Positions 117 to 34,711 of a stretch of 64,000 bases of DNA are shown here, one piece after another. Source of the DNA: Eledone cirrhosa (taxonomy: Eukaryota); contig OZ024743.1 in the NCBI GenBank assembly GCA_964016885.1, forward strand, positions 118,172,001 to 118,236,000. The letters are read 5' to 3'. The first letter of the stretch is position 1. The number at the start of each line of letters is the position of its first letter. The notes under the pieces were generated by a model. The model made no database searches and had not been told where the DNA came from. It worked only from the letters and a program-made list of their open reading frames with translations. The translations under genes were made by a program, and so were the position numbers.

Positions 117-326
117 TAGACATACATACACAGAAATCGCGCGCAGTCATATATACAAGTTCTCGAGCATAGACGAGCGTCTTGAGCAAGCGACTTTTAC
201 CGTAGTGTTGGTCCAACCCTCTAGAATGAGACTGTGTAGAGGCCGTATATCTCTAATTCAATCATCAAGAAGGTATTACACACCGTCTGTCGACGGTTCT
301 GTGTGAAGATTAATTCAATAGTACTA

Positions 327-511
327 AGGCGGTGGATTGGCGGTATCGGTAGAGGGTCGGACGCCATGCTTTCCAGCATAGTTACGTCCCTTTACGATCT
401 GAGTTCAAATCCCGCCGAGGTTGACTTTGCCTTTCATCCTTACGGGGTCGATAAAATAAAGTACCAGTAATGCACTGGATAATTGCTGGCCTTGTGCCTA
501 AAGTAGAAACA
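327..511 (+). mobile_element. tRNA-derived SINE, full length, with target-site duplication (TSD)
   Basis: A-box-like TGGCGGTATCGG and B-box GAGTTCAAATCCC. Core GACTTTGCCTTTCATCCTTACGGGGTCGATAAAATAAAGTACCAG recurs in about 8 copies in the window. TSD ATTAATTYAATAGTACTA at 309-326 and 512-529. Confidence 0.9.
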
Positions 512-4509: not shown

Positions 4510-6060
4510 CGGCACTACACTAAGAGAATACGAAGCGGTGACAGGAGCAATGATCAACCAGGAAAAGTCGGTGGGCCTGCAGCTCGGCACATGGAGAGGC
4601 AGGTCCATGCTGTCCAACAGCGTCGTCGGGCGGTGGACGGAGGGACCAGTTAAATTGTTAGAGGTCTGTTCGGTCCGGAGCTCCAGACGGACAAAAACTG
4701 GGACGATGTGACGAGCAGGGTGGCTTCTCTCACCCAGAATTGGGCGGAGAGGAGGCTATCTCTGAAAGGTCGAGCGGAGGTTGCTAACGCGTACATCGCG
4801 TCCGTCATCTACTACCGCCTGACCGTCGTGCTTTGTCCTAAGCCTCGCCTGACTGCGCTGGAGCGTTTGCTCTTTCGCTTTTTATGGAAGGGATGCGCTC
4901 CGATGGTCAGGCGTTCCATCTGTTGTCAACACCCGCTACGTGGAGGGATGGGCATGCCGTGGATAATGATGCGCAGACACACGCGCTCAGGCTACGACAC
5001 CTCCACCTCTTCCTCAACGGTGATCAGGTGTGGTCGCCGTTTGCTAGACGCGTCTTTACCCAGCTCGTCTCCTTGACGGAGCTGCAGTACTGGGTCAAGC
5101 GAACACCGAGAGGAAGCGCTTGGAGACTGGAATGTCTTCAGGCGCTCACAGCCCTCGACCAATCAGGCAATGTAATCGGTGGAAACTCCACCTCGGCGTT
5201 CTATAGAGGATTAGTGGGGGGAAAGAGCGACGACGTACTTGGGGAAACTCTAGGCGTCGACGAATATCAACTAGCCAATCTCTTCGGAATAACTTTCGGG
5301 CCGGGGCCTATGGACAACTTCCAGAAATCCCTGGTCTGGCAGTGCTACTGAGGAGCTTTGCCAGTTCGGGATAAACTCTACAGGCATGGAGGTGCCGTCA
5401 GCCTAGCATGTCCGAGATGCACGCAGTGCGACGAAACCGTCCAATGCCCGTGCATTGCTGAGTTGTGGGTTTATGTCGAACACCTGCTGTCACGTGTAGG
5501 ACGGATCCGGCTATCAGCTGAGTCCACCGTGAGGATTGCCCCGCCCTCTTGCTTTAGCCGGGAAGGGCAGGCAGTTTTTATCTGTTTGGTGGCCATGGCG
5601 AAAGAGATAGTATGGTGGACACGTTTGAAAGGGCTGAAGACGAGCACTTACCTCTTCGGTGATGCCCTGATTAACTTTTTCAAATTTCATTTGAAAAGGA
5701 AAATCAGGGTATAGAGGGAAGTGCTCTCTTCCCAGCATTTTGTTGAAAGATGGGTGAGAGACGGAAGAATGGCCGGAGTGAATGGGCCTACTCTGAGTAT
5801 GTGTCTGTAAATTAAAGGTGGAAAACTGGGATAGGGCACTTGCCCTGGTGATCAGGGTCACTGTGGTATTTTAATGGGCTTTCTCCACAAATGTCCCTCG
5901 GAAGTCTCCCCCCTATTGTGGAATTTTTCATTGTTATTTCTTTGTTACATCCTCTGTTTTTGTTTTTTACACGCAGAAATACCCATTTGTACCGTCCTGT
6001 ATTGTCCTGTACTGTCCTTAATGTCTACTTTATGTAAACCCTTGTGGTTAATAAAGAAGG

Positions 6061-6124
<64 letters not shown>
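4510..6124 (+). mobile_element. L1/Tx1-type LINE copy A (subfamily 1), 5'-truncated and decayed, with (ATT)n tail 6062-6124
   Basis: Collinear with ~10465-12058 of copy B. C-terminal ORF2 has stops and frameshifts. 3' end reads AACCCTTGTGGTTAATAAAGAAGGC(ATT)n. Confidence 0.95.
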
Positions 6125-6332
6125 GGCGACCTACGTAGTAAATCGTATCATCGTGAGCTCCGCAAAGGTTTGTTATTTCCGTTTGTTAAAAATTGTCATT
6201 TATGGAAAATTTTATTGTTAACTGTTTATAAGCGCACATACATTGTTTTCCGAAAAGGACACCCAAAAAGATTGGGGCCTTGTGCCCAAAATTTTAACTT
6301 TTATTATTATCAAAAAATTTCTTTGAAAAAAA

Positions 6333-8328
6333 ATGGCTAATTCACCTCTGCACCAAGCAGCTGAAAGCCTTCCTCACAAATTAACACCTCACACCGACAC
6401 CACCATTGTAAATGTTACTACGTTTGCCAACACTACTAAAAATGTAAGCAGTAGCAATATTTTAAATTTGTCTCAGGCAGACATTCATTTCCCGCCATTA
6501 CCAATGACTGCAGGTGTTAAAGCCTCCACCACCACCACCACCGCGACAACCACCACCCACACCACCACCGCGACAACAGAAACAAAAGAAGAAAAAAAAA
6601 AATTAACTCGTGATGTCGAAATGAAATCAAGCAAAATGGACTCTTCCCCACCAAAGACGACTGACGTCACCACCACCACAACTGAAACTAAAATTAATAT
6701 TAACACAAATAACGATAGCAACAACAACAACAATGACATTATAAAAACCACCCTCAGTTTTGCCAGAGTAGCAAAACAGTTCGAAGCATTTACGGTAACT
6801 CAGGAGGATTTAGAAAATGCCAAACAAATGGTAAAGAAAGATGGGTACAGGGTCAGCCTCACCCCCCACCTAATAAAATGGAGCATCAGCGCCTATGCAC
6901 CGTGTCGTATCGAACAATAAATGTAAAATCGCGCCGAGTGGAACGGGCACCCGAGTCCCAAATCCAAAAAGCTTTGGAACATGTGTGGGCAAGAAAAACC
7001 CACATCAGACGTGGGCAGAAGTATGGAACCGTGGACGTGTTCTTTGAAACACCAGAGGAGGCTAGAGAACACTCCATGGCCCCATTAAGAATTGACGACT
7101 TCACACTCGTCCCAAGCTATTGTGGCCAGAGACTCGTAAACATCAGGGTGACCCATGTTCCACCGGCCATCGAAATTCCCTGGCTAATAGCGGCCATCCT
7201 CGCCGGCATCGAAGCCAAAACAAAAATAATAGCAATAGCAAAAGAAAAGCAGGAGAACTGGTTCGGATCTGGGATGGAGCTCCTGATCCAAGCGGACCAA
7301 AAAAGCATTGAGGAGATCCCAGAGGTAATAGACCTCACTGACGGCAGCCACCTCACGGTAATTAACGAGTGCAGAAGACCTAGGTGTGTCGTTTGTGGTG
7401 AAGGAACCCACCTAAGGGCTTTCTGCCCTCAGGCTAAAAGGTTGAGGCCACCTCTCCTACCCACCCCAGTGACACAACCATCAACACCACCAGTAGCAGA
7501 GATGGCAGCAACAACTGTAGCAGCAACAACAGAAGCAACTATAACAGCAACAATCCCAGCAACAGTAGCAAAAGCAACACCACCACTACCACCACCAGCA
7601 AAACCAACACCACCACCACCCAACGCTTCAGAACTAGCACCAGAGCCTACACCATCCACGACGCCACAACCAAAACTAACGCCTGTGGAGGATTTTCCAC
7701 TCCCCGGCCTATCACAACTGGAGACAGATTGTGACGACGAGGAGTGGGAAACGATATCCGGAAAAAAAAAAGAAACCAAAAAAGAAAAAATTCTCTTCCT
7801 TCCCCCTCCAAAAACAAAATACAGAGGGAAACAAATAAATTAAGAAAGAAAACAGTTAGGACAGATATGCCACCATCCACACCAGCATCACCAACCCCAT
7901 CAACCCAAACACCAACACCATCACCATCATTAACCCCAACACCACCATCACCTACACCACAAAAGTCACCAAAATGCGAAACAGAAACAAACCCACAACA
8001 AACGCAAACAAAACAAAACAACCAAAACGATACACACTACACAGCATTAAATTTGAACAACAAGCAATTATTACACTACATCCAACACAACACCAGCATC
8101 ACAGAAAAAGACTACACAACAACCCCAAAATTCACACCACCTCCACACATACAAATCACTCGCATCACACAGAAAACGTACATGACACTAAAAAAAAAAT
8201 TCCCCAAAGACATCGGAGACTTCCGACAAGCACTCTCCAGGAGGATTTATAAGGACATCCTTCCTGAGGAGGCCAGAAGCAGTGAAAAGGATGGAAAAAC
8301 CGTCCTTCCCCTACGAGAAGTAAGGTAA
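6333..8328 (+). pseudogene. LINE ORF1 (gag-like RNA-binding protein with zinc knuckle), frameshifted
   Basis: Pieces 6333-6920, 6878-7843 and 7744-8328. CVVCGEGTHLRAFC fits CX2CX4HX4C. RGQKYGTV is homologous to RGRQYGTV in copies C/D. Confidence 0.85.
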
Positions 8329-8362
8329 GTGGTCTTTCCCATCTTTTCCACTCCTTTTCAAC

Positions 8363-11300
8363 ATGACCTCACTCAGAATAGGCAGCATAAATGCGCGTGG
8401 CTTGGGGTCGTTATGGAAGCAGGGCCACCTGCTCAACGACCTCAGGTCACTAAACATAGATGTAGTGGCCATCAGCGAGACCAGAATCTCCGAAGCACAG
8501 GCTTTCGCACCGATCTTCGGCGGCTACGATGTGTACGCATCTCCCAGCCGTCCGGGATCGGGGGGAGGAGTTGCTGTGCTTTTTCGGAGAGGTTTGGATC
8601 TTGCCATACGGGCCATCTTCCTGGACCCAGAAGGTAAGTTGGTGGTGCTGGACGTGACCAGCGGAGACGGGCAAGCTTTCCGGTTAGTGGCCGTCTATGC
8701 CCCGACAGGAGCAGGGCGGCCTGATTTCTTCCGGCGTCTGGAGACCTTTCTTGGAACGTCCCGCTCTTTAGTGTTAGTGGGCGACTGGAACGGGATCTTA
8801 GATGCACGCTGGGATTGTGTGGGATTAGTGGATAGGGAAGGAGGGTGCAAGAGTCTCACCAACCTGCTCAGACGTTTTGAACTGTCTGACAAGTACCGAA
8901 TGGATTTCCCGAATGTACCAATGTGGACTTGGACAAATCGCATAGGGTCATCCAGATCATATCTAGATAGAATATGTTGTAGGGAAATAGATATGTCTAG
9001 CATAGGCTGTCCACAATTCAAGATAGTCAGCTACACGGACCACAAATTCGTGATCTGTGTGCTTGACTTAGATAGGCTTCATAGACGAGGACCCGGCTAC
9101 TGGAAGCTAAACGCGTCCTTACCAGCGCGCAAGGCCTACAGAGACCGGATTAGCGAACTAGTTAAGCGGGCGTTGACGGGGCCATCGTCAACAACAAGTG
9201 GTGGTTTGCTCTGAAAAGAGCAATTAGAATAGAGTCCATTAGGTTTAGTAAGACTTTAGCAATAGAGAAAAATAGAGCAGAGGGAGAATTAGTTAGAAAA
9301 TTAGATGAGGCGCTCAGCAAAGGCATCGCGACCGACGTACTTGCGGCGAGATTGGCCCTTGACCAATTCTTCAATGCAAAGCACGAAGGATGCGTTGTCA
9401 GAGCTAGGGTGCGTGCTCTCAGACACGAGAGGACGAAAGCCGTTCAATGGGCCCGAGTGGCGGAGGCGCGTCGTGGCAACAAAGCCACGATCCGGTCTTT
9501 GGTGGACCACGACGGGCGCATGCTACTCGATCCCGGGCAAATGTGTGAAGCTTTTCAGCGACACTTCGCTCAACTGTTCGGGGCAGTGGCGGGCCGTATC
9601 GAGGGATGGGCTTTAGTGTCTACCTCGACGGACTGCCGCGGCTTTCGGCCAAGAGGCGGAGTGTTGCGAAAAGCCGATAACAACCGCTGAAGTACGGGAT
9701 GCAATGACTAGTTGCACAAGGGGTAAATCGCCTGGTTTGGATGGTCTGCCCTATGAACTTTACGTACAAATGCCAGACTTGTTCGGAGGCCTCTTGGCGG
9801 ACGTCTACTGCAACTGGCAACAGAAAGGGAGAATTCCCAGCTCTGTGAGCCGAGGAGCGGTGGCGCTGCTGAGAAAGGATCCGAACAAGGGGGATAACAT
9901 AGATAATTTTAGGCCCATAACTCTGCTAAACACAGAGTTCAAGATTTTGGCCAAGGTGCTAGCAAAGAGCTTGGCGCTTGTCGTTGGTGGTCTGGTGGGA
10001 GAGGCACAGACATGCGCCATTCCCGACAGATCCATCCACGACAACCTCCACCTCATGCGATACATCGTAGAGAGTGTAGCTAGGGAACCTGGCACGGGTG
10101 GGTCTTTGATCAATTTAGATCAGTCGAAAGCCTTCGATAGGGTCGACCATCGTTACCTAGCGGCAGTCCTGAGGGCGGCTGGCTTTGGGCCCGTCTTCAG
10201 AGGCTGGATCGATGCCATGCACAGCGACATCTGCTCTGTAGTGAGAGTGAACGGTCACCTTTCGGAACCGTTCAACATCATGCGCTCGGTCCGCCAAGGA
10301 TGTCCCCTCTCGTCCCTATTGTACGTATTGACTCTCGAGCCATTACTGCACAAACTGGAGACGTTGAGGGGGGTCCCGCGCGAACTAGGATGCGGAAGAT
10401 CCGTGTCAGCATATGCCGACGATGTCACCGTAGTGGTGTCGAACGCCAAACACATCGAGGCGATCGGCACTACACTAAGAGAATACGAAGCGGTGACAGG
10501 AGCAATGATCAACCAGGAAAAGTCAGTAGGCCTGCAGCTCGGCACCTGGAGAGGCAGGTCCATGCCGTACAACAGCGTCGTCAGACGCTGGACGGACCGA
10601 CCGGTTAAATTGCTAGGGGTCTGTTCGGTCCAGACCTCCGGACGGACAAAAACTGGGACGAGGTGACGAGCAGGGTGGCTTCTTTCACCCAGAAATGGGC
10701 TGAGAGGAAGCTATCCCTGAAAGGTCGAGCGGAGGTGGCTAACGCGTACATCGCGTCCGTCATCTACTACCGCCTGACCGTCGTACCTTGTCCTAAGCCC
10801 CGCCTGACTGCGCTGGAGCGTTTGCTCTTTCGCTTCTTGTGGAAGGGACGCGCTCCGATGGGAAGGCGGTCCATCTGCTGTCAACACCCGCTACGTGGAG
10901 GGATGGGCATGCCGTGCCTGATGATGCGCAGACACGCGCTCAGGCTACGACATCTCCACCTCTTCCTCGACGGTGATCAGGTGTGGTCGCCGTTTGCTAG
11001 ACACGTTTTCCCCCAGCTCGTCTCCTTGACGGAGCTGCAGTCCTGGGTCAAGCGAAGACCGAGAGGGAGCGCTTGGAGACTGGAATGTCTCCAGGCGCTC
11101 ACAGCCCTCGACCAATCGAGCAATGTGATCGGTGGAAACTCCACCTTGGCGTTCTATAGGGGATTAGTGGAGGAGAAGAGCGACGACGTACTTGGAGAAA
11201 CTCTAGGCGTCGACGAAAATCAACTAGCCAATCTCTTCGGAAGGACTTTCGGGCCGGGGCCTATGGACAACTTCCAGAAATCCCTGGCCTGGCAGTGCTA

Positions 11301-11778
11301 CCAGGGTGCTTTGCCAGTCCGGGATAAACTTTACAGGCATGGAGGTGCCGTCAGCCGGGCATGTCCGAGATGCGCATAGGGCGACGAAACCGTCCTGCAC
11401 GCACTCGTCCAGTGTCCGAGCATTGCTGACTTGTGGGTTTATGTCGAACACCTGCTGTCACGTGTAGGACGGATCCAGCTATCAGCTGAGTCCATCGTGA
11501 GGATTGCCCCGCCCTCTTCCTTTAGCCGGGAAGGGCAGGCAGTTTTTATCTGTCTGGTGGCCATGGCGAAATAGATAGTATGGTGGACACGTTTGAAAGG
11601 GCTGAAGACGAGCACTTACCTCTTCGGTGATGCCCTGATTAACTTTTTCAAATTTCACCTGAAAAGGAAAATCAGGGTAGAGAGGGAAGTGCTCTCTTCC
11701 CAGCATTTTGTTGAAAGATGGGTGAGAGAAGCAAGTATGGCCCGAATGAATGGGCCTACTCTGAGTATGTGTCTGTAA
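8363..11778 (+). pseudogene. LINE ORF2 (APE endonuclease, reverse transcriptase, C-terminal zinc finger), disrupted
   Basis: APE motifs SINARGL, SETR, GDWN, TDH. RT motifs KSPGLDG, QGCPLS, YADD. Frameshifts near 9180, 9610-9660 and 10620; in-frame TAG stops at 11377 and 11572. Confidence 0.95.
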
Positions 11779-12018
11779 ATTAAAGGTGGAAAACTGGGAT
11801 AGGGCACTTACCCTGGTGGTCAGGGCCACTGTGGTCTTTTAGTGGGCTTTCTCCACAAATGTCCCTCGGAAGTCTCCCCCCTATTGGGGAATTTTTCTTT
11901 ATTTTATTTCATCCTCTGTTTTTTTTACACGCAGAAATGCCCATTTGTACCGTCCTGTATTGTCCTGTACTGTCCTTAATGTCTACTTTATGTAAACCCT
12001 TGTGGTTAATAAAGAAAA

Positions 12019-12058
<40 letters not shown>

Positions 12059-12270
12059 GACGAAAGTGGATGTACGTTTTTTGAAGCTCCGTGAGTAAGC
12101 GATTTTTTGAGGATTAATTGTAGAGAATTGTTTATTTTTTGTACCGTTGAAGCATTATAAGACTTTCATTTGTATCCTGTGAAGGAATAACTCATAATAT
12201 TTGGGCCTTTTGGCCCAAATATTTGAACTTTATTTTGAAAAAAAAATAATAATTTTTTTCTCAAAAAAAC

Positions 12271-14182
12271 ATGGCGGAGCCACGCCCCCTAGAGGCGGGT
12301 CTGCTGTCGTGCAACGGCGACTTGAGCGTTGAGAGGAGAGGTGAGGCGAGGAGCGCCACCAGCACGAGTGTGAGCAGCGACAGTGCCAGCACCAACGGGC
12401 CGAGCGGCGCGGAAGTAGGTAACAGCGACAACACCAACACCAACAAGCCGAACAGCGCAGAAGGTGGTAATAGCGAGAGCACCAACAAAACAAACAGCAC
12501 AGAGAGTAATAGTAGCGACAGCAACAGCACCAACAAGGCCAACAGCACAGAGGGAAACCACGACACAGGGGAGAACAACAACAGCAATAGCAGCAGCAAC
12601 ACCAACAAGAACAACAACAGTGACAACACCAACAAGAACACTTTCGCTGCTGTGGCAGCGGCTAAAAGGAGACCATGCTACAGCATCGACTTAACCAACA
12701 GAGAGGAAAAGTTGGCCCAGGCCTGGAAAATCATAAATCAAGAGCAGACCTGGGCAAACTTAACTGTCCCGGCAGAAGCCATTGAGGCAGTGGAAAAAAG
12801 AACGGTGAATTTCAGATGCATCTCAGTAGAGACAAAGAGGGCAGCGATAATCGCCCAAGCTGACATAGAAGCCGCACTGAAATACATCAGAGAGGACACA
12901 GACTTCATAGAGAGGGGCAGGCAATACGGCACCGTTTCGGTGCTGTTCAAGTCTGAAGCCCTCGCTGTGAAGCATTCAATGACCCCTTGCAAAACCAGCA
13001 AGGTCATAATGTACCCCTCCCACATGGGAAAACGAATAGCACGTGTGCGCATTCCCAGGATTCCACCAGGACTTGATATGTGGTGGCTCCTGGGTTGCGT
13101 AATCGTGGAAGGAACGGATACAGTCCCGGTAGAGGCAACGAGAACTGCCAGGGACGACTGGTCCGGGGTTGATCTGGAGATACTGCTCCAAATCAGACCC
13201 GAAAACGTAAAAACAATCCCGGACCACATCCGCCTCCAAAACGGGAGGGTGTTGCATATAATGACTGAGGGCAAAAGGCCGCATTGTTTCCTTTGTGGGG
13301 AAACGACACACTTGCGAGCCTTCTGCCCTCAACTGCCGAAAAGCGCAAGGGGTCGAAAGATTCCACTGCTGGCGACGCCGGGACAAGGACCACCAGCAAC
13401 ACCGTCAACAATGGAACCACCAAAATTGCACACCCAGGGGGGAAACGAGGAAAGCTCTCCCATTCCCCCTCCCCCCCAAAATACACACACGAACAAGAAC
13501 ATAAACACTCACTCAGATACAAACACGCTCACAGCCACAGACCCCTCATCCTCCAGCAGTGAAGATGAGGGAAAACCAAAGTCCCCCAAAATACAAAAAA
13601 CAAAACACAAAAAAAAAAAGAAATCCACAAAGCACAAACACCCCCACAAAAAAAAATACACACACCACCCACACAAACATTTTCCCCACAGCATCACCAA
13701 CACAACCACCAAAATCCCCCAAACGCAAACAAGCTAAACAGACACAAGAACAAATAGACACACAAACATCAGAAACTACAGACACCCCACCCACAACAAA
13801 CGCAGACACAATAGAAACAACACTAACAAAGCTATCACCACCACAATCACACGAACAAATAAAACCCGAGCAACAAAACATTAAAAACTTCGTGCTTGCC
13901 AGAAGGGCCAACAAGGAATTGATGGCCCATGTAGCACGAAGCACAAACATCGAAAAAGACGGGGAAACATTTGAAGCGAGCACATTTCGCGTACCAGATA
14001 ATTTGCTTCTGATGCGAATGTCGCTCGCTTCATACAAAGAAATTCGAAAGAGCTTTCCTCGGGATGTGGGAACCCCGAACGTAAAACCCACGTCAAGACT
14101 ATTAAAGGGGTTCCCAAAAGAAACCCCACAAACCATGGAGGTCGAACCACCCGACCTTCACAAGACCCCGGAAGGTAAGTAA
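12271..14182 (+). CDS. LINE ORF1 (about 636 aa if repaired); one frameshift in an A-run near 13610
   Basis: ORFs 12271-13737 and 13559-14182 overlap across poly-A runs. Zinc knuckle CFLCGETTHLRAFC; N/S/T-rich N-terminus. Confidence 0.85.
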
Positions 14183-14211
14183 ACCTTTCCTCTCCCATTC
14201 ATCCTGCCAGC

Positions 14212-17200
14212 ATGGCCATAAGAGTAGGAAGTTTAAATGTTCGTGGCCTGGGGTCGCCCTGGAAGCAAGGTCACTTGCTCAACGACCTCAGGTCACTAGG
14301 AATGGATGTAATTGCCATCAGCGAGACCAGAATTTCCGACACACGCGCACTGGCGCCGATTTTCGACGATTATCAGATCTTTGCATCTGTTAGTCGGCCG
14401 GGAATGGGAGGTGGAGTGGCTGTGCTGTTTAGGAAATGTCTGGATCTCGAGGTAAGGTCAATCTTCCGGGATCCTGACGGAAAGTTGGTGGTCCTGGACG
14501 TGAGCAATAGCGAAGGTGGTGCCTTTAGACTGGTGGCCGTCTACGCCCCTACTGGGGCCGGTCGGCCGGACTTCTTTAGGCGCCTGGAAAACTTTCTGCT
14601 TACGTCTCGCCCTTTACTGTTAATAGGGGATTGGAATGGCATCTTAGAAGCACGCTGGGATTGTGTGGGAGTATCTGATAGGAGCGGGGGGTGCAAAAGC
14701 CTCAAGTACCTGATCAGCCAGTTTCAACTGTCTGACAGGTACCGACTAGATTTCCCTAATGCGCCAGTATGGACCTGGACCAATCGCATAGGGTCATCTA
14801 GATCGTACATAGATAGGATTTTCATTAGGAAAAGAGATAGAAATAGTGTAGGATGTCCACATTTTAAAACGGTTGCCTATTCAGATCACAAGCTTGTGAT
14901 CTGTATGGTCGACCTAGATAAGACACGTAGGTTAGGACCTAGCTACTGGAAGCTAAACATGTCGTTTCCGGCACGTAAAGCTTACAGGGACCGGGTCAAC
15001 AACTTAGTTAAGCAAAAGTTGACAGGGGGGGTTGTCAACAACAGGTGGTGGGGGGCACTCAAAAGAGAGATTAGAGCAACCTCGATAGGATTTAGCAAAG
15101 AAGTAGCAATAGAGAAAAATAGAAAGGAGGAGGGGCTGATAGCTAAGTTAGACGAGGCTATTTGTAGTGGCATTGCAACAGACGTGCTAGCGGCGAGAAT
15201 GGCACTAGACCATTTCTTCAATGCGAAACACGAAGGTTGCATTGTCAGAGCTAAGGCGCGTGCTCTGAGGAACGAGGGAAGCAAAGCTGCCCGATGGGCT
15301 CGCTTTGCAGAGACGCAGCGTGGAAATAAAACCACAATTCGGTCTTTGACGGATCGAGATGGACACGAACTGAGCGATTCCAAGCAGATGTGTGAGGCCT
15401 TTCGCCAGCACTTTGCTCGATTGTTCGGGAGGATGGGTGAGTCGGAGACGGCGGCGGACTTCAGTCCCTACCTCGACGGCTTGCCACGCCTCTCGACGGC
15501 CGACGCTGAGCGCTGCGAAGAGCCGATAACATCAGCCGAAATTCAGGACGCCCTTGTCGGCTGCTCGAGTCGCAAGTCACCCGGTTTGGATGGTCTGCCC
15601 TACGAGCTTTACGTAAATATGCCAGACTTGTTCTCCGATCTCCTCGAAGCGCTCTACTGCAACTGGCAGCAGAACGGGAGCATTCCCAGTTCTGTGAGCC
15701 GTGGCGTAGTGACGCTGATAAGGAAAGACGAGAACAAGAGGGACACACTAGATAATTTCAGGCCCATAACGCTGCTCAACACAGAGTTTAAGATTTTGGC
15801 CAAGGTGTTAGCGAAAAGGTTGGCGCTTGTCGTCAAAGATTTGGTTGGGGAGGCGCAAACTTGCGCAATCCCGACCAGGTCCATACACGACAACCTCCAC
15901 CTCATGCGATACATCATAGAGAGGGTTGGGTGCAAACCTGGCTTCGGTGGGGCTCTGATCAATTTAGATCAATCGAAAGCATTCGATAGGGTCGACCATC
16001 GGTACTTGGAGGCTGTCCTCGAGGCGGCTGGCTTCGGCCCCGTCTTCAGAAGCTGGATCGCTGCAATGTACAGCGGCATCCGCTCGGTGGTCAAAGTTAA
16101 TGGCCACCTCTCGGAACCGTTTCAGATCTCTCGATCGGTCCGTCAAGGGTGCCCTCTCTCCTCACTTCTGTACGTATTGACTCTTGAGCCTCTACTGCGG
16201 AAGCTGGAGTTGTTGCAGGGCATCCCGCTCGAACCGGGACGTAGAAAGGCTGCGTCCGCTTATGCGGACGACATCACCGTGATGGTGTCGGACACCTCGG
16301 AAATCGAGGTGATCCGCACCCATTTGGAGGAATATGAAAGGTTGACGGGAGCAAAACTTAACCCGGAAAAGTCGGTGGGCTTGCAGCTCGGCACCTGGAG
16401 AGGCAAGTCCATGCCGTCCAACAGCGTCGTTGGGCGCTGGACAGACGGACCGGTAAAGTTGCTCGGGGTTTGGTTCGGACCAGACCTCCAGGTGGATAAG
16501 AATTGGGACGAGGTGACGAGCAGGATAGCCAACCTCACCCAGAAATGGGCTGAGAGAAAGCTATCACTGAAAGGGCGGGCGGAGGTGGCGAACGCGTACA
16601 TCGCGTCCGTCATCTACTACCGCCTGGCCGTCGTGCCTTGCCCCCGTCCACGCCTCGCCAATTTGGAACGGCTCCTTTTCAAATTTTTGTGGAGGGGACG
16701 GGTCCCGTTGGTGAGGCGGTCCATCTGCTGCCAGCACCCTCTTCGTGGAGGGCTGGGCATGCCGTGGCTAATGATGCGCAGACATGCGCTGAGGCTGCGA
16801 CATCTCCAGATATTTTGCCTAAACGGTGAACAGGTGTGGTCGCCGTTTGTTAGACGGGCCTTTCCGCAGCTCATCTCTTTGACTGAGCTGCAGTCCTGGG
16901 TCAAGAAGAGACCGAGACTGGGCGACTGGCATCTGGAATGTTGCCAGGCGCTCACTGCACTCTGCAAGGTGGGCAATGCGGTCAGTGGAACTTCCACTCA
17001 AGATTTCTATAGAGGATTAGTGGAGGGCAAGTGCGATGACGTACTAGGAGAGGCTCTGGGCGTCAACGAAGTAGAACTGACCAGTATGTTCCGGAGGACT
17101 TTCGAGCCGGGGACGATGGATAACTTCCAGAAATCCCTCGCTTGGCAGTGCTACCGGGGGGCGCTGCCGGTTCGGGATAAACTCTACAGGCACGGAAGTG

Positions 17201-17631
17201 CTGTCAGACGAACCTGCCCGAGATGCGCGCAGAGCGACGAAACCGTTCTGCACGCACTCGTCCAGTGTCCGTGCATTGCTGACTTGTGGGGTTATGTCGA
17301 ACAGCTATTGTCGCGTGTAGAACGGATCCGGCTATCGTCCGAGTCCATAGTGAAGATTGACCCGCCGCCTTCTTTTGGTCAGGAAGGGCAGGCAATTTTC
17401 CTCTGCCTGGTGGCAGTAGCGAAAGAGGTTGCATGGTGGACCAGGTTGAAAGGACTGAAGACAGACACTTTTCTCTTCGGCCAATCCCTCATCAACTTCT
17501 TCAAGTTTCACTTGGAAAGGAAGGTGAGGGTGGAGAGAGAAGTGCTGCCCCCCAGTACATTTACTGAAAGGTGGGTGAATGTGGCGAGAATGGCCCGCGT
17601 GAGTGGGCCTACTCTGATCATGCGCCTGTAG
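14212..17631 (+). CDS. LINE ORF2, intact 1139 aa: APE endonuclease, reverse transcriptase, C-terminal CCHC zinc finger
   Basis: Motifs SLNVRGL, SETR, GDWN, SDH, WKLN, KSPGLDG, FRPITLLN, KAFDRV, QGCPLS, YADD and CPRC...ETVLHALVQC. Confidence 0.98.
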   Translation: MAIRVGSLNVRGLGSPWKQGHLLNDLRSLGMDVIAISETRISDTRALAPIFDDYQIFASVSRPGMGGGVAVLFRKCLDLEVRSIFRDPDGKLVVLDVSNSEGGAFRLVAVYAPTGAGRPDFFRRLENFLLTSRPLLLIGDWNGILEARWDCVGVSDRSGGCKSLKYLISQFQLSDRYRLDFPNAPVWTWTNRIGSSRSYIDRIFIRKRDRNSVGCPHFKTVAYSDHKLVICMVDLDKTRRLGPSYWKLNMSFPARKAYRDRVNNLVKQKLTGGVVNNRWWGALKREIRATSIGFSKEVAIEKNRKEEGLIAKLDEAICSGIATDVLAARMALDHFFNAKHEGCIVRAKARALRNEGSKAARWARFAETQRGNKTTIRSLTDRDGHELSDSKQMCEAFRQHFARLFGRMGESETAADFSPYLDGLPRLSTADAERCEEPITSAEIQDALVGCSSRKSPGLDGLPYELYVNMPDLFSDLLEALYCNWQQNGSIPSSVSRGVVTLIRKDENKRDTLDNFRPITLLNTEFKILAKVLAKRLALVVKDLVGEAQTCAIPTRSIHDNLHLMRYIIERVGCKPGFGGALINLDQSKAFDRVDHRYLEAVLEAAGFGPVFRSWIAAMYSGIRSVVKVNGHLSEPFQISRSVRQGCPLSSLLYVLTLEPLLRKLELLQGIPLEPGRRKAASAYADDITVMVSDTSEIEVIRTHLEEYERLTGAKLNPEKSVGLQLGTWRGKSMPSNSVVGRWTDGPVKLLGVWFGPDLQVDKNWDEVTSRIANLTQKWAERKLSLKGRAEVANAYIASVIYYRLAVVPCPRPRLANLERLLFKFLWRGRVPLVRRSICCQHPLRGGLGMPWLMMRRHALRLRHLQIFCLNGEQVWSPFVRRAFPQLISLTELQSWVKKRPRLGDWHLECCQALTALCKVGNAVSGTSTQDFYRGLVEGKCDDVLGEALGVNEVELTSMFRRTFEPGTMDNFQKSLAWQCYRGALPVRDKLYRHGSAVRRTCPRCAQSDETVLHALVQCPCIADLWGYVEQLLSRVERIRLSSESIVKIDPPPSFGQEGQAIFLCLVAVAKEVAWWTRLKGLKTDTFLFGQSLINFFKFHLERKVRVEREVLPPSTFTERWVNVARMARVSGPTLIMRL

Positions 17632-18122
17632 GCTGGTGAATTCGAGAAGGAGAGGGGTGCCCTTCCCGGGTGCCCTAGGAGCGTCGGGTGGCTCAGGACT
17701 GGTGGGGTGCTTGAGTCAACCCTGGGTGGTGATCCCTCTTATTGGGGAACTTTCATTGTTGTATTTTTATTGTTATTTTGTTTTTGTTTTTTTTGTTATT
17801 TATACTTACTCGATCTCTATGTAAACCCCCACTGTCCCTGTCTATTGTGTTGTCCCCTATATGTCGGCCCTTGTGGCCAATAAATGAAATCATTATTATT
17901 ATTATTATTATTGACGAAAGTGGATGTACGTTTTTTGAAGCTCCGTGAGTAAGCAATTTTTGAGGATTAATTGTAGAGAATTGTTTATTTTTTGTACCGC
18001 TGAAGCATTATAAGACATTAATTTGTATCCTGTGAAGGAATAACTCATAATATTTGGGCCTTTTGGCCCAAATATTTGAACTTTATTTTGAAAAAAAATA
18101 ATAATTTTTTTCTCAAAAAAAC

Positions 18123-20038
18123 ATGGCGGAGCCACGCCCCCTAGAGGCGGGTCTGCTGTCGTGCAACGGCGACTTGAGCGTTGAGAGGAGAGGTGAGGCG
18201 AGGAGCGCCACCAGCACGAATGTGAGCAGCGACAGTGCCAGCACCAACGGGCCGAGCGGCGCGGAAGGTGGTAACAGCGACAACACCAACACCAACAAGC
18301 CGAACAGCGCAGAAGGTGGTAATAACGAGAGCACCAACAAAACGAACAGCACAGAGAGTAATAGTAGCGACAGCAGCAGCACCAACAAGGCCAACAGCAC
18401 AGAAGGTAACCACGACACAGGGGAGAACAACAACAGCAATAGCAGCAGCAACACCAACAAGAACAACAACAGTGACAACACCAACAAGAACACTTTCGCT
18501 GCTGTGGCAGCGGCTAAAAGGAGACCATGCTACAGCATCGACTTAACCAACAGAGAGGAAAAGTTGGCCCAGGCCTGGAAAATCATAAATCAAGAGCAGA
18601 CCTGGGCAAACTTAACTGTCCCGGCAGAAGCCATTGAGGCAGTGGAAAAAAGAACGGTGCATTTCAGATGCATCTCAGTAGAGACAAAGAGGGCAGCGAT
18701 AATCGCCCAAGCTGACATAGAAGCCGCACTGAAATACATCAGAGAGGACACAGACTTCATAGAGAGGGGCAGGCAATACGGCACCGTTTCGGTGCTGTTC
18801 AAGTCTGAAGCCCTCGCTGTGAAGCATTCAATGACCCCTTGCAAAACCAGCAAGGTCATAATGTACCCCTCCCACATGGGAAAACGAATAGCACGTGTGC
18901 GCATTCCCAGGATTCCACCAGGACTTGATATGTGGTGGCTCCTGGGTTGCGTAATCGTGGAAGGAACGGATACAGTCCCGGTAGAGGCAACGAGAACTGC
19001 CAGGGACGACTGGTCCGGGGTTGATCTGGAGATACTGCTCCAAATCAGACCCGAAAACGTAAAAACAATCCCGGACCACATCCGCCTCCAAAACGGGAGG
19101 GTGTTGCATATAATGACTGAGGGCAAAAGGCCGCATTGTTTCCTTTGTGGGGAAACGACACACTTGCGAGCCTTCTGCCCTCAACTGCCGAAAAGCGCAA
19201 GGGGTCGAAAGATTCCACTGCTGGCGACGCCGGGACAAGGACCACCAGCAACACCGTCAACAATGGAACCACCAAAATTGCACACCCAGGGGGGAAACGA
19301 GGAAAGCTCTCCCATTCCCCCTCCCCCCCAAAATACACACACGAACAAGAACATAAACACTCACTCAGACACAAACACGCTCACAGCCACAGACCCCTCA
19401 TCCTCCAGCAGTGAAGATGAGGGAAAACCAAAGTCCCCCAAAATACAAAAAACAAAACACAAAAAAAAAAGAAATCCACAAAGCACAAACACCCCCACAA
19501 AAAAAAAAAAAATACACACACCACCCACACAAACATTTTCCCCACAGCATCACCAACACAACCACCAAAATCCCCCAAACGCAAACAAGCTAAACAGACA
19601 CAAGAACAAATAGACACACAAACATCAGAAACTACAGACACCCCACCCACAACAAACGCAGACACAATAGAAACAACACTAACAAAGCTATCACCACCAC
19701 AATCACACGAACAAATAAAACCCGAGCAACAAAACATTAAAAACTTCGTGCTTGCCAGAAGGGCCAACAAGGAATTGATGGCCCATGTAGCACGAAGCAC
19801 AAACATCGAAAAAGACGGGGAAACATTTGAAGCGAGCACATTTCGCGTACCAGATAATTTGCTTCTGATGCGAATGTCGCTCGCTTCATACAAAGAAATT
19901 CGAAAGAGCTTTCCTCGGGATGTGGGAACCCCGAACGTAAAACCCACGTCAAGACTATTAAAGGGGTTCCCAAAAGAAACCCCACAAACCATGGAGGTCG
20001 AACCACCCGACCTTCACAAGACCCCGGAAGGTAAGTAA
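18123..20038 (+). CDS. LINE ORF1; one frameshift in the A-run near 19500
   Basis: ORF 18123-19613 plus the downstream frame ending at 20038; CCHC knuckle present. Confidence 0.85.
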
Positions 20039-20067
20039 ACCTTTCCTCTCCCATTCATCCTGCCAGC

Positions 20068-23000
20068 ATGGCCATAAGAGTAGGAAGTTTAAATGTTCGT
20101 GGCCTGGGGTCGCCCTGGAAGCAAGGTCACTTGCTCAACGACCTCAGGTCACTAGGAATGGATGTAATTGCCATCAGCGAGACCAGAATATCCGACACAC
20201 GCGCACTGGCGCCGATTTTCGACGATTATCAGATCTTTGCATCTGTTAGTCGGCCGGGAATGGGAGGTGGAGTGGCTGTGCTGTTTAGGAAATGTCTGGA
20301 TCTCGAGGTAAGGTCAATCTTCCGGGATCCTGACGGAAAGTTGGTGGTCCTGGACGTGAGCAATAGCGAAGGTGGTGCCTTTAGACTGGTGGCCGTCTAC
20401 GCCCCTACTGGGGCCGGTCGGCCGGACTTCTTTAGGCGCCTGGAAAACTTTCTGCTTACGTCTCGCCCTTTACTGTTAATAGGGGATTGGAATGGCATCT
20501 TAGAAGCACGCTGGGATTGTGTGGGAGTATCTGATAGGAGCGGGGGGTGCAAAAGCCTCAAGTACCTGATCAGCCAGTTTCAACTGTCTGACAGGTACCG
20601 ACTAGATTTCCCTAATGCGCCAGTATGGACCTGGACCAATCGCATAGGGTCATCTAGATCGTACATAGATAGGATTTTCATTAGGAAAAGAGATAGAAAT
20701 AGTGTAGGATGTCCACATTTTAAAACGGTTGCCTATTCAGATCACAAGCTTGTGATCTGTATGGTCGACCTAGATAAGACACGTAGGTTAGGACCTAGCT
20801 ACTGGAAGCTAAACATGTCGTTTCCGGCACGTAAAGCTTACAGGGACCGGGTCAACAACTTAGTTAAGCAAAAGTTGACAGGGGGGGTTGTCAACAACAG
20901 GTGGTGGGGGGCACTCAAAAGAGAGATTAGAGCAACCTCGATAGGATTTAGCAAAGAAGTAGCAATAGAGAAAAATAGAAAGGAGGAGGGGCTGATAGCT
21001 AAGTTAGACGAGGCTATTTGTAGTGGCATTGCAACAGACGTGCTAGCGGCGAGAATGGCACTAGACCATTTCTTCAATGCGAAACACGAAGGTTGCATTG
21101 TCAGAGCTAAGGCGCGTGCTCTGAGGAACGAGGGAACCAAAGCTGCCCGATGGGCTCGCTTTGCAGAGACGCAGCGTGGAAATAAAACCACAATTCGGTC
21201 TTTGACGGATCGAGATGGACACGAACTGAGCGATTCCAAGCAGATGTGTGAGGCCTTTCGCCAGCACTTTGCTCGATTGTTCGGGAGGATGGGTGAGTCG
21301 GAGACGGCGGCGGACTTCAGTCCCTACCTCGACGGCTTGCCACGCCTCTCGACGGCCGACGCTGAGCGCTGCGAAGAGCCGATAACATCAGCCGAAATTC
21401 AGGACGCCCTTGTCGGCTGCTCGAGTCGCAAGTCACCCGGTTTGGATGGTCTGCCCTACGAGCTTTACGTAAATATGCCAGACTTGTTCTCCGATCTCCT
21501 CGAAGCGCTCTACTGCAACTGGCAGCAGAACGGGAGCATTCCCAGTTCTGTGAGCCGTGGCGTAGTGACGCTGATAAGGAAAGACGAGAACAAGAGGGAC
21601 ACACTAGATAATTTCAGGCCCATAACCCTGCTCAACACAGAGTTTAAGATTTTGGCCAAGGTGTTAGCGAAAAGGTTGGCGCTTGTCGTCAAAGATTTGG
21701 TTGGGGAGGCGCAAACTTGCGCAATCCCGACCAGGTCCATACACGACAACCTCCACCTCATGCGATACATCATAGAGAGGGTTGGGTGCAAACCTGGCTT
21801 CGGTGGGGCTCTGATCAATTTAGATCAATCGAAAGCATTCGATAGGGTCGACCATCGGTACTTGGAGGCTGTCCTCGAGGCGGCTGGCTTCGGCCCCGTC
21901 TTCAGAAGCTGGATCGCTGCAATGTACAGCGGCATCCGCTCGGTGGTCAAAGTTAATGGCCACCTCTCGGAACCGTTTCAGATCTCTCGATCGGTCCGTC
22001 AAGGGTGCCCTCTCTCCTCACTTCTGTACGTATTGACTCTTGAGCCTCTACTGCGGAAGCTGGAGTTGTTGCAGGGCATCCCGCTCGAACCGGGACGTAG
22101 AAAGGCTGCGTCCGCTTATGCGGACGACATCACCGTGATGGTGTCGGACACCTCGGAAATCGAGGTGATCCGCACCCATTTGGAGGAATATGAAAGGTTG
22201 ACGGGAGCAAAACTTAACCCGGAAAAGTCGGTGGGCTTGCAGCTCGGCACCTGGAGAGGCAAGTCCATGCCGTCCAACAGCGTCGTTGGGCGCTGGACAG
22301 ACGGACCGGTAAAGTTGCTCGGGGTTTGGTTCGGACCAGACCTCCAGGTGGATAAGAATTGGGACGAGGTGACGAGCAGGATAGCCAACCTCACCCAGAA
22401 ATGGGCTGAGAGAAAGCTATCACTGAAAGGGCGGGCGGAGGTGGCGAACGCGTACATCGCGTCCGTCATCTACTACCGCCTGACCGTCGTGCCTTGCCCC
22501 CGTCCACGCCTCGCCAATTTGGAACGGCTCCTTTTCAAATTTTTGTGGAGGGGACGGGTCCCGTTGGTGAGGCGGTCCATCTGCTGCCAGCACCCTCTTC
22601 GTGGAGGGCTGGGCATGCCGTGGCTAATGATGCGCAGACATGCGCTGAGGCTGCGACATCTCCAGATATTTTGCCTAAACGGTGAACAGGTGTGGTCGCC
22701 GTTTGTTAGACGGGCCTTTCCGCAGCTCATCTCTTTGACTGAGCTGCAGTCCTGGGTCAAGAAGAGACCGAGACTGGGCGACTGGCATCTGGAATGTTGC
22801 CAGGCGCTCACTGCACTCTGCAAGGCGGGCAATGCGGTCAGTGGAACTTCCACTCAAGATTTCTATAGAGGATTAGTGGAGGGCAAGTGCGATGACGTAC
22901 TAGGAGAGGCTCTGGGCGTCAACGAAGTAGAACTGACCAGTATGTTCCGGAGGACTTTCGAGCCGGGGACGATGGATAACTTCCAGAAATCCCTCGCTTG

Positions 23001-23487
23001 GCAGTGCTACCGGGGGGCGCTGCCGGTTCGGGATAAACTCTACAGGCACGGAAGTGCTGTCAGACGAACCTGCCCGAGATGCGCGCAGAGCGACGAAACC
23101 GTTCTGCACGCACTCGTCCAGTGTCCGTGCATTGCTGACTTGTGGGGTTATGTCGAACAGCTATTGTCGCGTGTAGAACGGATCCGGCTATCGTCCGAGT
23201 CCATAGTGAAGATTGACCCGCCGCCTTCTTTTGGTCAGGAAGGGCAGGCAATTTTCCTCTGCCTGGTGGCAGTAGCGAAAGAGGTTGCATGGTGGACCAG
23301 GTTGAAAGGACTGAAGACAGACACTTTTCTCTTCGGCCAATCCCTCATCAACTTCTTCAAGTTTCACTTGGAAAGGAAGGTGAGGGTGGAGAGAGAAGTG
23401 CTGCCCCCCAGTACATTTACTGAAAGGTGGGTGAATGTGGCGAGAATGGCCCGCGTGAGTGGGCCTACTCTGATCATGCGCCTGTAG
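20068..23487 (+). CDS. LINE ORF2, intact 1139 aa (APE-RT-zinc finger)
   Basis: Same motifs as 14212-17631. I see three amino-acid differences (S/T, A/T, V/A). Confidence 0.98.
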   Translation: MAIRVGSLNVRGLGSPWKQGHLLNDLRSLGMDVIAISETRISDTRALAPIFDDYQIFASVSRPGMGGGVAVLFRKCLDLEVRSIFRDPDGKLVVLDVSNSEGGAFRLVAVYAPTGAGRPDFFRRLENFLLTSRPLLLIGDWNGILEARWDCVGVSDRSGGCKSLKYLISQFQLSDRYRLDFPNAPVWTWTNRIGSSRSYIDRIFIRKRDRNSVGCPHFKTVAYSDHKLVICMVDLDKTRRLGPSYWKLNMSFPARKAYRDRVNNLVKQKLTGGVVNNRWWGALKREIRATSIGFSKEVAIEKNRKEEGLIAKLDEAICSGIATDVLAARMALDHFFNAKHEGCIVRAKARALRNEGTKAARWARFAETQRGNKTTIRSLTDRDGHELSDSKQMCEAFRQHFARLFGRMGESETAADFSPYLDGLPRLSTADAERCEEPITSAEIQDALVGCSSRKSPGLDGLPYELYVNMPDLFSDLLEALYCNWQQNGSIPSSVSRGVVTLIRKDENKRDTLDNFRPITLLNTEFKILAKVLAKRLALVVKDLVGEAQTCAIPTRSIHDNLHLMRYIIERVGCKPGFGGALINLDQSKAFDRVDHRYLEAVLEAAGFGPVFRSWIAAMYSGIRSVVKVNGHLSEPFQISRSVRQGCPLSSLLYVLTLEPLLRKLELLQGIPLEPGRRKAASAYADDITVMVSDTSEIEVIRTHLEEYERLTGAKLNPEKSVGLQLGTWRGKSMPSNSVVGRWTDGPVKLLGVWFGPDLQVDKNWDEVTSRIANLTQKWAERKLSLKGRAEVANAYIASVIYYRLTVVPCPRPRLANLERLLFKFLWRGRVPLVRRSICCQHPLRGGLGMPWLMMRRHALRLRHLQIFCLNGEQVWSPFVRRAFPQLISLTELQSWVKKRPRLGDWHLECCQALTALCKAGNAVSGTSTQDFYRGLVEGKCDDVLGEALGVNEVELTSMFRRTFEPGTMDNFQKSLAWQCYRGALPVRDKLYRHGSAVRRTCPRCAQSDETVLHALVQCPCIADLWGYVEQLLSRVERIRLSSESIVKIDPPPSFGQEGQAIFLCLVAVAKEVAWWTRLKGLKTDTFLFGQSLINFFKFHLERKVRVEREVLPPSTFTERWVNVARMARVSGPTLIMRL

Positions 23488-23760
23488 GCTGGTGAATTCG
23501 AGAAGGAGAGGGGTGCCCTTCCCGGGTGCCCTAGGAGCGTCGGGTGGCTCAGGACTGGTGGGGTGCTTGAGTCAACCCTGGGTGGTGATCCCTCTTATTG
23601 GGGAACTTTCATTGTTGTATTTTTATTGTTATTTTGTTTTTGTTTTTTTGTTATTTATACTTACTCGATCTCTATGTAAACCCCCACTGTCCCTGTCTAT
23701 TGTGTTGTCCCCTATATGTCGGCCCTTGTGGCCAATAAATGAAATCATTATTATTATTAT

Positions 23761-29307: not shown

Positions 29308-29479
29308 CTAGGCACTTCGTTATCCAAGAATGAGGGACCATATCGAATGCTTTCTTGTAATCTGTCCATCACATGCAAGACCAGTATGCGTCCTCTTACA
29401 GGTCCTTATTATCATCTTGTCAATAAGTAACCCTGTCTTTTGTACCACAGCGCTTCTTTCGGCATCCTTTGATTTGAAC

Positions 29480-29631
29480 TTTACATTTTGAGTTCAAATC
29501 CTGCCGAGGTTAGCTTTGCTTTCATCCTTACGGGGTCAATAAATAAAGCACTGGGTTCAATTTAATCGACTTTCCACATTCTCAAAATTACTGGCCTTGT
29601 GCCTATACTAGAAATCATTATTATTATTATT
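29480..29631 (+). mobile_element. 5'-truncated SINE with (ATT)n tail
   Basis: B-box, core, and 3' end GGCCTTGTGCCTATACTAGAAATC(ATT)n. Confidence 0.88.
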
Positions 29632-34280: not shown

Positions 34281-34299
34281 TCCCCGAGTAGATCTAATA

Positions 34300-34512
34300 A
34301 TTGTTTTTATTTTAGATTCAAGGCCAGCATTTTAAAGGGGTGGGGAAAGTCGATTGAATCGACCCCAGTGCTTACTGGGACTTTATTATATCGGCCCCGT
34401 AAGGATGAAAGACAAAGTTAACCCCAGCGGGATTTGAAATCCGCAAGTAATAGGCCATAACTCTATGCCACGTAACATGGTGTCCGACGCTCTACCAATT
34501 CTGAAAATCCAC
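34300..34512 (-). mobile_element. tRNA-derived SINE, first of a tandem pair
   Basis: Reverse-complement match to the family. CCGAGTAGATSTAATAATTGTTT is duplicated at ~34284 and ~34512. Confidence 0.85.
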
Positions 34513-34524
34513 CGAGTAGATGTA

Positions 34525-34711
34525 ATAATTGTTTCTACTTTTGGCACAAGGCTAGCAATTATCCCAGTGTATTACTGGTACTTTATTTTATCGACCTCGT
34601 AAGGGTGAAAGGCAAAGTTAACCTCGGCGGGATTTGAACTCAGACCATAAAGGGCCATAACTCTTTGCTGCAAAGCATGGCGTCTGACCCTATACCGATA
34701 CTGCCAATCCG
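34525..34711 (-). mobile_element. tRNA-derived SINE, second of the tandem pair
   Basis: Reverse-complement match to 327-511. Confidence 0.9.

Follow-up and report, generated by a model that had tools for sequence, protein, structure and literature searches.

A Tx1-type LINE and an abundant SINE of Eledone cirrhosa with a common 3' hairpin motif: a probable partner pair

A LINE of the Tx1 type and a very abundant SINE in the genome of Eledone cirrhosa end in the same small motif and, judging from their sequences, are quite likely to be a partner pair. In the common 3' end, a stem of 3 bp closes the 5-nt loop C(T/C)TGT; the segment GAAA follows, and ATTA lies 16–17 nt past the loop. The motif, its distance from the 3' end, the type of target-site duplication, the nesting of copies and the ages are common to both families. 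Because the SINE has the same terminal motif, it is likely to be copied by the LINE ORF2 protein (ORF2p). Our preferred reading, to which we give a probability of about 60%, is that ORF2p of this (ATT)n-targeting member of the L1/Tx1 group would bind RNA at a small 3' hairpin, made up of a 3-bp stem and the loop CUUGU, and copy the SINE in trans.

The window, by which we mean the whole 64-kb stretch of DNA analysed, contains four head-to-tail LINEs of the L1/Tx1 group (copies A–D) joined by ATT runs, together with relics and eight SINE copies (Table 1); the subfamily labels of LINE and SINE are our own assumed naming, with no tool behind them. Copies C and D are 99.5% identical, as are copy C and 20 other genomic copies, and copy B is 77% identical to copy C over ORF2 and the 3' UTR. 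ORF1 of copy C has no Pfam match. In ORF2, PF03372 (APE endonuclease), PF00078 (RT) and PF13966 (C-terminal zinc-binding, zf-RVT) are recognized, and its best solved relative is human L1 ORF2p (E 3e-57), with R2 at 1e-22; the nearest named relative of all is from Argonauta hians (69%). In an RT tree (FastTree, 108 sequences) built without named Tx1 or L1 references, the LINE has a long branch to itself, within a 0.968 clade that also contains elements inserted into U2 snRNA and 5S rRNA genes. U2 and 5S genes are targets described for Tx1 families (PMC4494074). Target specificity and target-site duplications of 7–20 nt, features of the L1 group and Tx1, have their counterparts here in the ATT runs that house the young copies and in duplications of 10–19 nt in truncated ones. 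The CCTTGTG-type terminal motif is absent from the recognizable 3' ends of 80 metagenome loci, very distant relatives of 25–45% identity. An internal U2-like stretch is present in one Tx1-like element from a metagenome that sits in U2 snRNA genes, and in two other loci.

Table 1. Positions of the LINE and SINE features in the 64-kb window.
Feature	Position	Strand	Remarks
SINE, short subfamily	326..511	+	hairpin GGC-CTTGT-GCC at 488-498; A/B-box-like head by eye
LINE copy A, subfamily 1, only 3' part aligned	4526..6061	+	hairpin 6037-6049
LINE copy B, subfamily 1, frameshifted	6125..12019	+	hairpin AACC-CTTGT-GGTT at 11995-12007
LINE copy C, subfamily 2, full length, ORFs intact	12059..17891	+	
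ORF1 of copy C	12271..13737	+	CX2CX4HX4C zinc knuckle visible in translation
ORF2 of copy C	14212..17631	+	apurinic-type endonuclease, reverse transcriptase, zf-RVT
Copy C 3' hairpin GGCC-CTTGT-GGCC	17866..17878	+	only the inner three pairs (17867-17877) form the conserved core
Copy C element end	17879..17891	+	AATAAA signal and GAAATC
(ATT)7	17892..17912	+	copy C tail/target; also insertion site of copy D
LINE copy D, subfamily 2	17913..23746	+	hairpin 23721-23733
SINE, long (older) subfamily, 5' part unaligned	29479..29616	+	hairpin 29593-29603, end GAAATC
Two tandem SINEs	34298..34710	-	second inserted in ATTAT end of first
Old LINE relic	57779..59253	-	hairpin GGCC-CTTGT-GGCT at 57806-57794

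The terminal motifs cited in a first-pass annotation of the window are all present at the positions of Table 1: GGCC-CTTGT-GGCC in copies C and D, followed by AATAAATGAAATC and ATT repeats, AACC-CTTGT-GGTT in copies A and B, and the relic and SINE versions. In the relic, ATTATTTT comes next instead of a long ATT run. Most details that it gave for the tails hold as well, apart from copy A, which ends GAAGGC rather than GAAAAC, and the SINE at 488, which is followed by ATTAAT and not by (ATT)n. This SINE is flanked on both sides by an 18-nt duplication with one mismatch (309-326 / 512-529).

The SINE is non-coding and about 185–210 nt long, with short and long subfamilies and the termini GAAACA, GAAACC or GAAATC. 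Evenly spaced genomic samples totalling 800 kb contain 156 matches to it. Exact genome-wide matches to one 32-nt end give at least 116,492 copies, a number that the short subfamily reaches despite lacking about 30 nt just upstream of the final ~35 nt; the needed signal should therefore sit in the last ~35 nt of the SINE. Arrays of three to four SINEs occur head-to-tail, each inside the ATTAT end of the preceding copy. In the SINE head, A- and B-box-like motifs are discerned by eye, against what we take to be the A/B-box consensus; ARAGORN and Rfam make no tRNA call, and the hairpin has no family match in Rfam. Membership of the MetaSINEs was rejected, since inspection by eye showed no resemblance to the Meta sequences of bivalves (supplement of PMC4824008), and BivaCORE-SINE2 has only a faint likeness, also by eye.

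The tail pattern is found 93 times in 864 kb (72 SINE, 12 LINE and 9 other matches), compared with 2–8 matches in five shuffles. Identity across representatives of seven LINE subfamilies is 92% in the 11 columns of the hairpin and 54% elsewhere in the 3' UTR, and the hairpin is the top-ranked 11-column window of the 3' UTR for conservation. Its inner three pairs are intact in all 12 LINE and SINE representatives: one is an invariant C-G, pair 2 is C-G in the LINE and G-C in the SINE, and pair 3 is G-C or A-U, setting subfamily 1 apart from the rest. Of the stem covariation proposed at first, these three conserved pairs hold, with about two independent double events among related sequences; pair 4 is broken in 7 of the 12 representatives. 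The covariation score of 0.451 is reached by none of 500 shuffles, which ignore kinship, and the best slid register scores 0.174. Among the first 100 listed of 16,475 LINE ends, inspected by eye, pair 3 is G-C in 36, A-U in 59, G-U in 2 and broken in 3, and pair 4 is broken in 13. Both bases of pair 2 are changed in only 25 LINE-type ends, versus 13,734 with C-G, and the difference between the LINE and SINE stems can equally be read as one lost pair. In contigs of two other organisms (from one study), the 3-bp hairpin and the tail are kept and the sequence diverges immediately upstream.

The folding z-scores (0.0 for copy C, −1.9 for copy B, +1.3 and +0.2 for SINEs) lend no support to a stable structure; the hairpin is weak and its folding marginal, and for the SINE at 488 it is not part of the minimum free energy fold in a 54-nt context. 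The sequence common to LINE and SINE is short, namely a 7-nt core, GAAA and the spacing; published LINE-SINE pairs have 35–61 nt in common at 72–95% (PMC11481361). End-anchored matches of LINE to SINE tails have shuffle p values of 2e-4 to 6e-3, for windows picked post hoc. When entire LINE copies were scanned, the best match to the SINE tail was internal, ahead of the 3' end, in three of four scans. The conservation of the motif with compensatory changes, as read from the alignments, is real but thin, comprising three pairs only.

The LINE carries two further hairpins. One, of the CCCC-YTATT-GGGG type, lies in the 3' UTR at 17734-17747 (+) and at the equivalent place in other copies; in the relic it is CACC/GGTG, a compensatory change, and it is missing from the SINE. 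The other, TTGGG...CCCAA, is found about 45 nt upstream of the ORF1 start, at 6272-6290 (+), 12201-12220 and 18054-18073, and is kept across LINE subfamilies whose 5' UTRs otherwise differ. In copy B it reads GGC-CTTGT-GCC, as in the SINE, and is that copy's best match to the young SINE tail. This 5' hairpin could be a second protein-binding site, or a product of chance.

Genome-wide, the LINE has about 14,000–16,000 ends (13,734 with the exact pattern, 16,475 in the wider set), and reversed controls of the exact end patterns gave 0 matches for the SINE type as well as the LINE type. Of twenty young subfamily-2 copies, which are among the best matches to the LINE 3' end and thus the youngest ones, every one extends to the 5' end; for the L1 group, so little truncation is unusual. 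All 19 young full-length LINEs with printed flanks lie inside runs of at least five ATT, with seven of them inserted in another Tx1 end, one in a SINE end and one in a CR1-like end. None of 30 young LINE ends carries poly(A). A sister Tx1 branch, with 7,061 exact ends, keeps the same hairpin, ends in (ATCT)n and also forms tandem arrays; about 80 of its first 100 ends listed have the loop CCTGT, so the loop is not constant across the genome, as had been supposed from the window. A sister SINE with an ATCT end was not found: the search gave one match, plus eight SINE tails followed by ATATCTAT.

The insertion footprints of the SINE were analysed in 1.4 Mb of unbiased, evenly spaced sequence, 0.05% of the 3.0-Gb genome. 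Of 99 SINE 3' flanks, 84 begin with ATTA. Exact duplications of 7–19 nt, counted from the element end, are present in 44 of the 99 (control mean 12.6, maximum 21) and those of at least 10 nt in 22 (control 0.84, maximum 4); 38 of the 44 duplications start with ATTAT. What follows the SINE is therefore the start of its target-site duplication and not an (ATT)n tail of its own, and the (ATT)n tail that LINE and SINE had been said to share is not a common tail in that sense. Instead, (ATT)n is a target common to both and probably also the priming sequence. Duplications of 10–19 nt that start with ATTAT are present in five truncated LINE copies, and an old LINE copy at a plain ATTAT site has a near-duplication of about 18 nt (by eye); 17 of the 27 LINE ends listed gave none, their junctions being unresolved or old. 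Directly behind a same-strand tail lie 17 of the 99 SINEs, and none is tail-to-tail with another tail. LINE and SINE copies are nested head-to-tail in the ends of one another. The ATT run past the element end has a median of 5 nt for the SINE (n=82) and measures 14–74 nt for the LINE (n=12). The SINE target is thus looser than that of the LINE, a difference that any model must explain and that ours puts down to tail length.

The ages of the two families, whose comparison had been proposed as a check, overlap. Divergence from the column mode has medians of 6% (n=53) and 17% (n=32) for SINEs, and the nearest-neighbour identity of LINEs is 74–99.6% (n=13). None of the SINE copies seen matches the 99.5% identical LINEs in youth, the closest SINE pair being 1.7% apart. 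Taken with the insertion footprint, the nesting and the failure of the other LINE clades seen, this overlap supports the pairing of LINE and SINE put forward by the first-pass annotation.

For RNA binding, nicking, priming and mobilization in trans, we infer the following route from the sequences. ORF2p would bind the hairpin together with the GAAA segment, and its endonuclease would nick the bottom strand at ATTAT sites. The freed DNA end may then pair with AUUAU(UAUU) in the RNA, 16–17 nt past the loop, and prime reverse transcription; priming at this place would account for the lack of poly(A) on the copies despite the AAUAAA of the LINE. Long ATT runs would be preferred by LINE RNA, owing to its long (AUU)n, and for SINE RNA, whose AUUAU end is short, any ATTAT site would do. 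Every new copy would become a new target, giving rise to tandem arrays, and the SINE end would be a mimic of the LINE end.

Other readings assign the hairpin or the partner differently. The Tx1 lineage might mobilize the SINE by priming at AUUAU and binding RNA in a general way; the hairpin would then be kept in the LINE for another job, 3'-end processing beside AAUAAA, and simply be inherited by the SINE. The motif indeed abuts AATAAA in every LINE subfamily, the hairpin is weak with a variable loop in the ATCT branch, and the case for crocodilian Tx1-Mar and SINEU, as presented, rests on the target and the 5' heads, the tails being poly(A) (PMC4494074). We nevertheless consider this unlikely: the SINE, in which AATAAA is not present, keeps the loop, the three pairs and the spacing in young and old subfamilies while the bases in between vary, and poly(A) is not seen on the LINE copies. 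It is similarly improbable that the SINE tail has a longer match in its true partner, some other LINE that is rarer or extinct (from Nimb/I, RTE or a different Tx1/L1 branch), and that the present likeness reflects distant kinship or chance. The shortness of the match, the looser SINE target and the small part of the genome read without bias leave room for such an element, and CR1, CR1-Zenon, L2 and Nimb are the partners given for mollusc SINEs (PMC11481361). A better match to the SINE tail in another LINE clade was nonetheless sought and none was found in the 1.4 Mb. The hairpin-tail pattern has 166 matches there (115 SINE, 15 LINE, 36 other); the 36 comprise six further ends of the Tx1-type LINE family, five truncated SINE tails and 25 at the level of shuffles (15–26). 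A covariance model gives 94 SINE, 14 LINE and 13 other matches, with no recognizable new LINE end among the latter, so that neither scan of these samples reveals a third family with the motif at its own end. When SINE-type tails were chosen for atypical upstream sequence, 28 of 30 were SINEs and the remaining two had no LINE body attached.

Candidates from other clades fare no better; their labels CR1-like, RTE-like and Dong/R4-like are ones we presume rather than tool results. The RTE-like elements end in (GAT)n and the Dong/R4-like ones in (AAT)n, both without the motif. Dong/R4-like (AAT)n elements sit tail-to-tail in ATT ends of Tx1, so several clades use the same ATT microsatellite. The CR1-like LINE is very abundant and young; its ends are ATTAT, it has a 3' stem-loop of its own and it leaves no target duplication. 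That it mobilizes the SINE is very improbable and already largely refuted: ATTAT does follow 17 of 20 of its ends, in short runs like those of the SINE, and CR1/L2 elements are the usual SINE partners (PMC3747384 Table 1), but its hairpin differs in sequence and shape, and none of the 13 copies whose 5' junction is visible has a duplication of at least 5 nt, as against the 7–19 nt of the SINE.

The wider picture, for which we see an even chance, would be that of an animal L1/Tx1-group element that reads a minimal 3-bp hairpin instead of poly(A), with a 16–17 nt ruler for priming on its own microsatellite tail, a switch of target from (ATT)n to (ATCT)n with the hairpin kept, and a SINE driven to several hundred thousand copies. 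The clade from which the relaxed mammalian L1 arose would then have a stringent-type member still alive, and a likely driver is named for a major repeat of the genome. It has been proposed, from three SINEs of plants and an alga, that recognition of a specific 3' RNA structure is ancestral in the L1 clade and that recognition of poly(A) came later (PMC3472496). The present animal element makes this proposal directly testable, with its intact copies of 99.5% identity, its natural variation in stem and loop, its two targets and its abundant passenger SINE, and comparison is possible with human L1 ORF2p, whose structures are solved.

A hairpin-type tail common to LINE and SINE is rarely reported for L1-group LINEs. 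The suggestion that such a tail is unusual for the group holds as to rarity and gives way as to precedent, which exists in maize/sorghum and Chlamydomonas (PMC3472496, PMC3747384); in crocodilians a SINE family driven by Tx1 has been proposed (PMC4494074). The 58 LINE-SINE pairs of one review, as set out there, include three SINEs with L1 tails, none with a Tx1 tail and none from a mollusc (PMC3747384). Our search of the literature found no Tx1-SINE pair with a common 3' hairpin and no octopus pair; the repeat databases (Repbase, Dfam, SINEBase) lay outside it, and prior annotation there is possible.

In the three known cases of SINEs with an L1 tail and a compensatory hairpin (PMC3472496, PMC3747384), LINE1-1_ZM with ZmSINE2/3 of maize/sorghum and L1-1_CR with SINEX-3_CR of Chlamydomonas, an L1-clade LINE and a tRNA SINE likewise have a common 3' hairpin (Ohshima 2012, PMC3472496; PMC3747384). 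Like the present pair, they are inferred from sequence and have a conserved loop and 3' flank with a compensatory stem (PMC3472496). They have about 50–80 nt in common and hairpins of −11 to −18 kcal/mol (PMC3472496, PMC3747384), whereas the present pair is of the animal Tx1 type, with about 30 nt in common, a 3-bp stem only, a microsatellite target and no poly(A). In crocodilians, the LINE Tx1-Mar has likewise been proposed to mobilize a SINE, SINEU, on the grounds of a common target preference and overlapping age (Kojima 2015, PMC4494074); SINEU differs in its U1/U2 heads, poly(A) tails and Mariner target, and its description, as presented, gives no common 3' hairpin (PMC4494074). Kibi, Koshi and the crocodilian microsatellite Tx1 elements are also microsatellite-specific, their targets being (TC)n, (TTC)n, (TTCC)n and (TTTC)n (PMC4494074), in contrast to the (ATT)n target of the present Tx1 and the (ATCT)n of its sister branch. 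Eel UnaL2 with UnaSINE and zebrafish ZfL2-1 and ZfL2-2 similarly place a stem-loop shortly upstream of a short 3' repeat (PMC4176376). These are L2-clade elements with longer stems, tested by assay, and for ZfL2 the tests show that the loop is read specifically and the stem is exchangeable (PMC4176376); the present pair belongs to the L1/Tx1 group and is known from its sequence.
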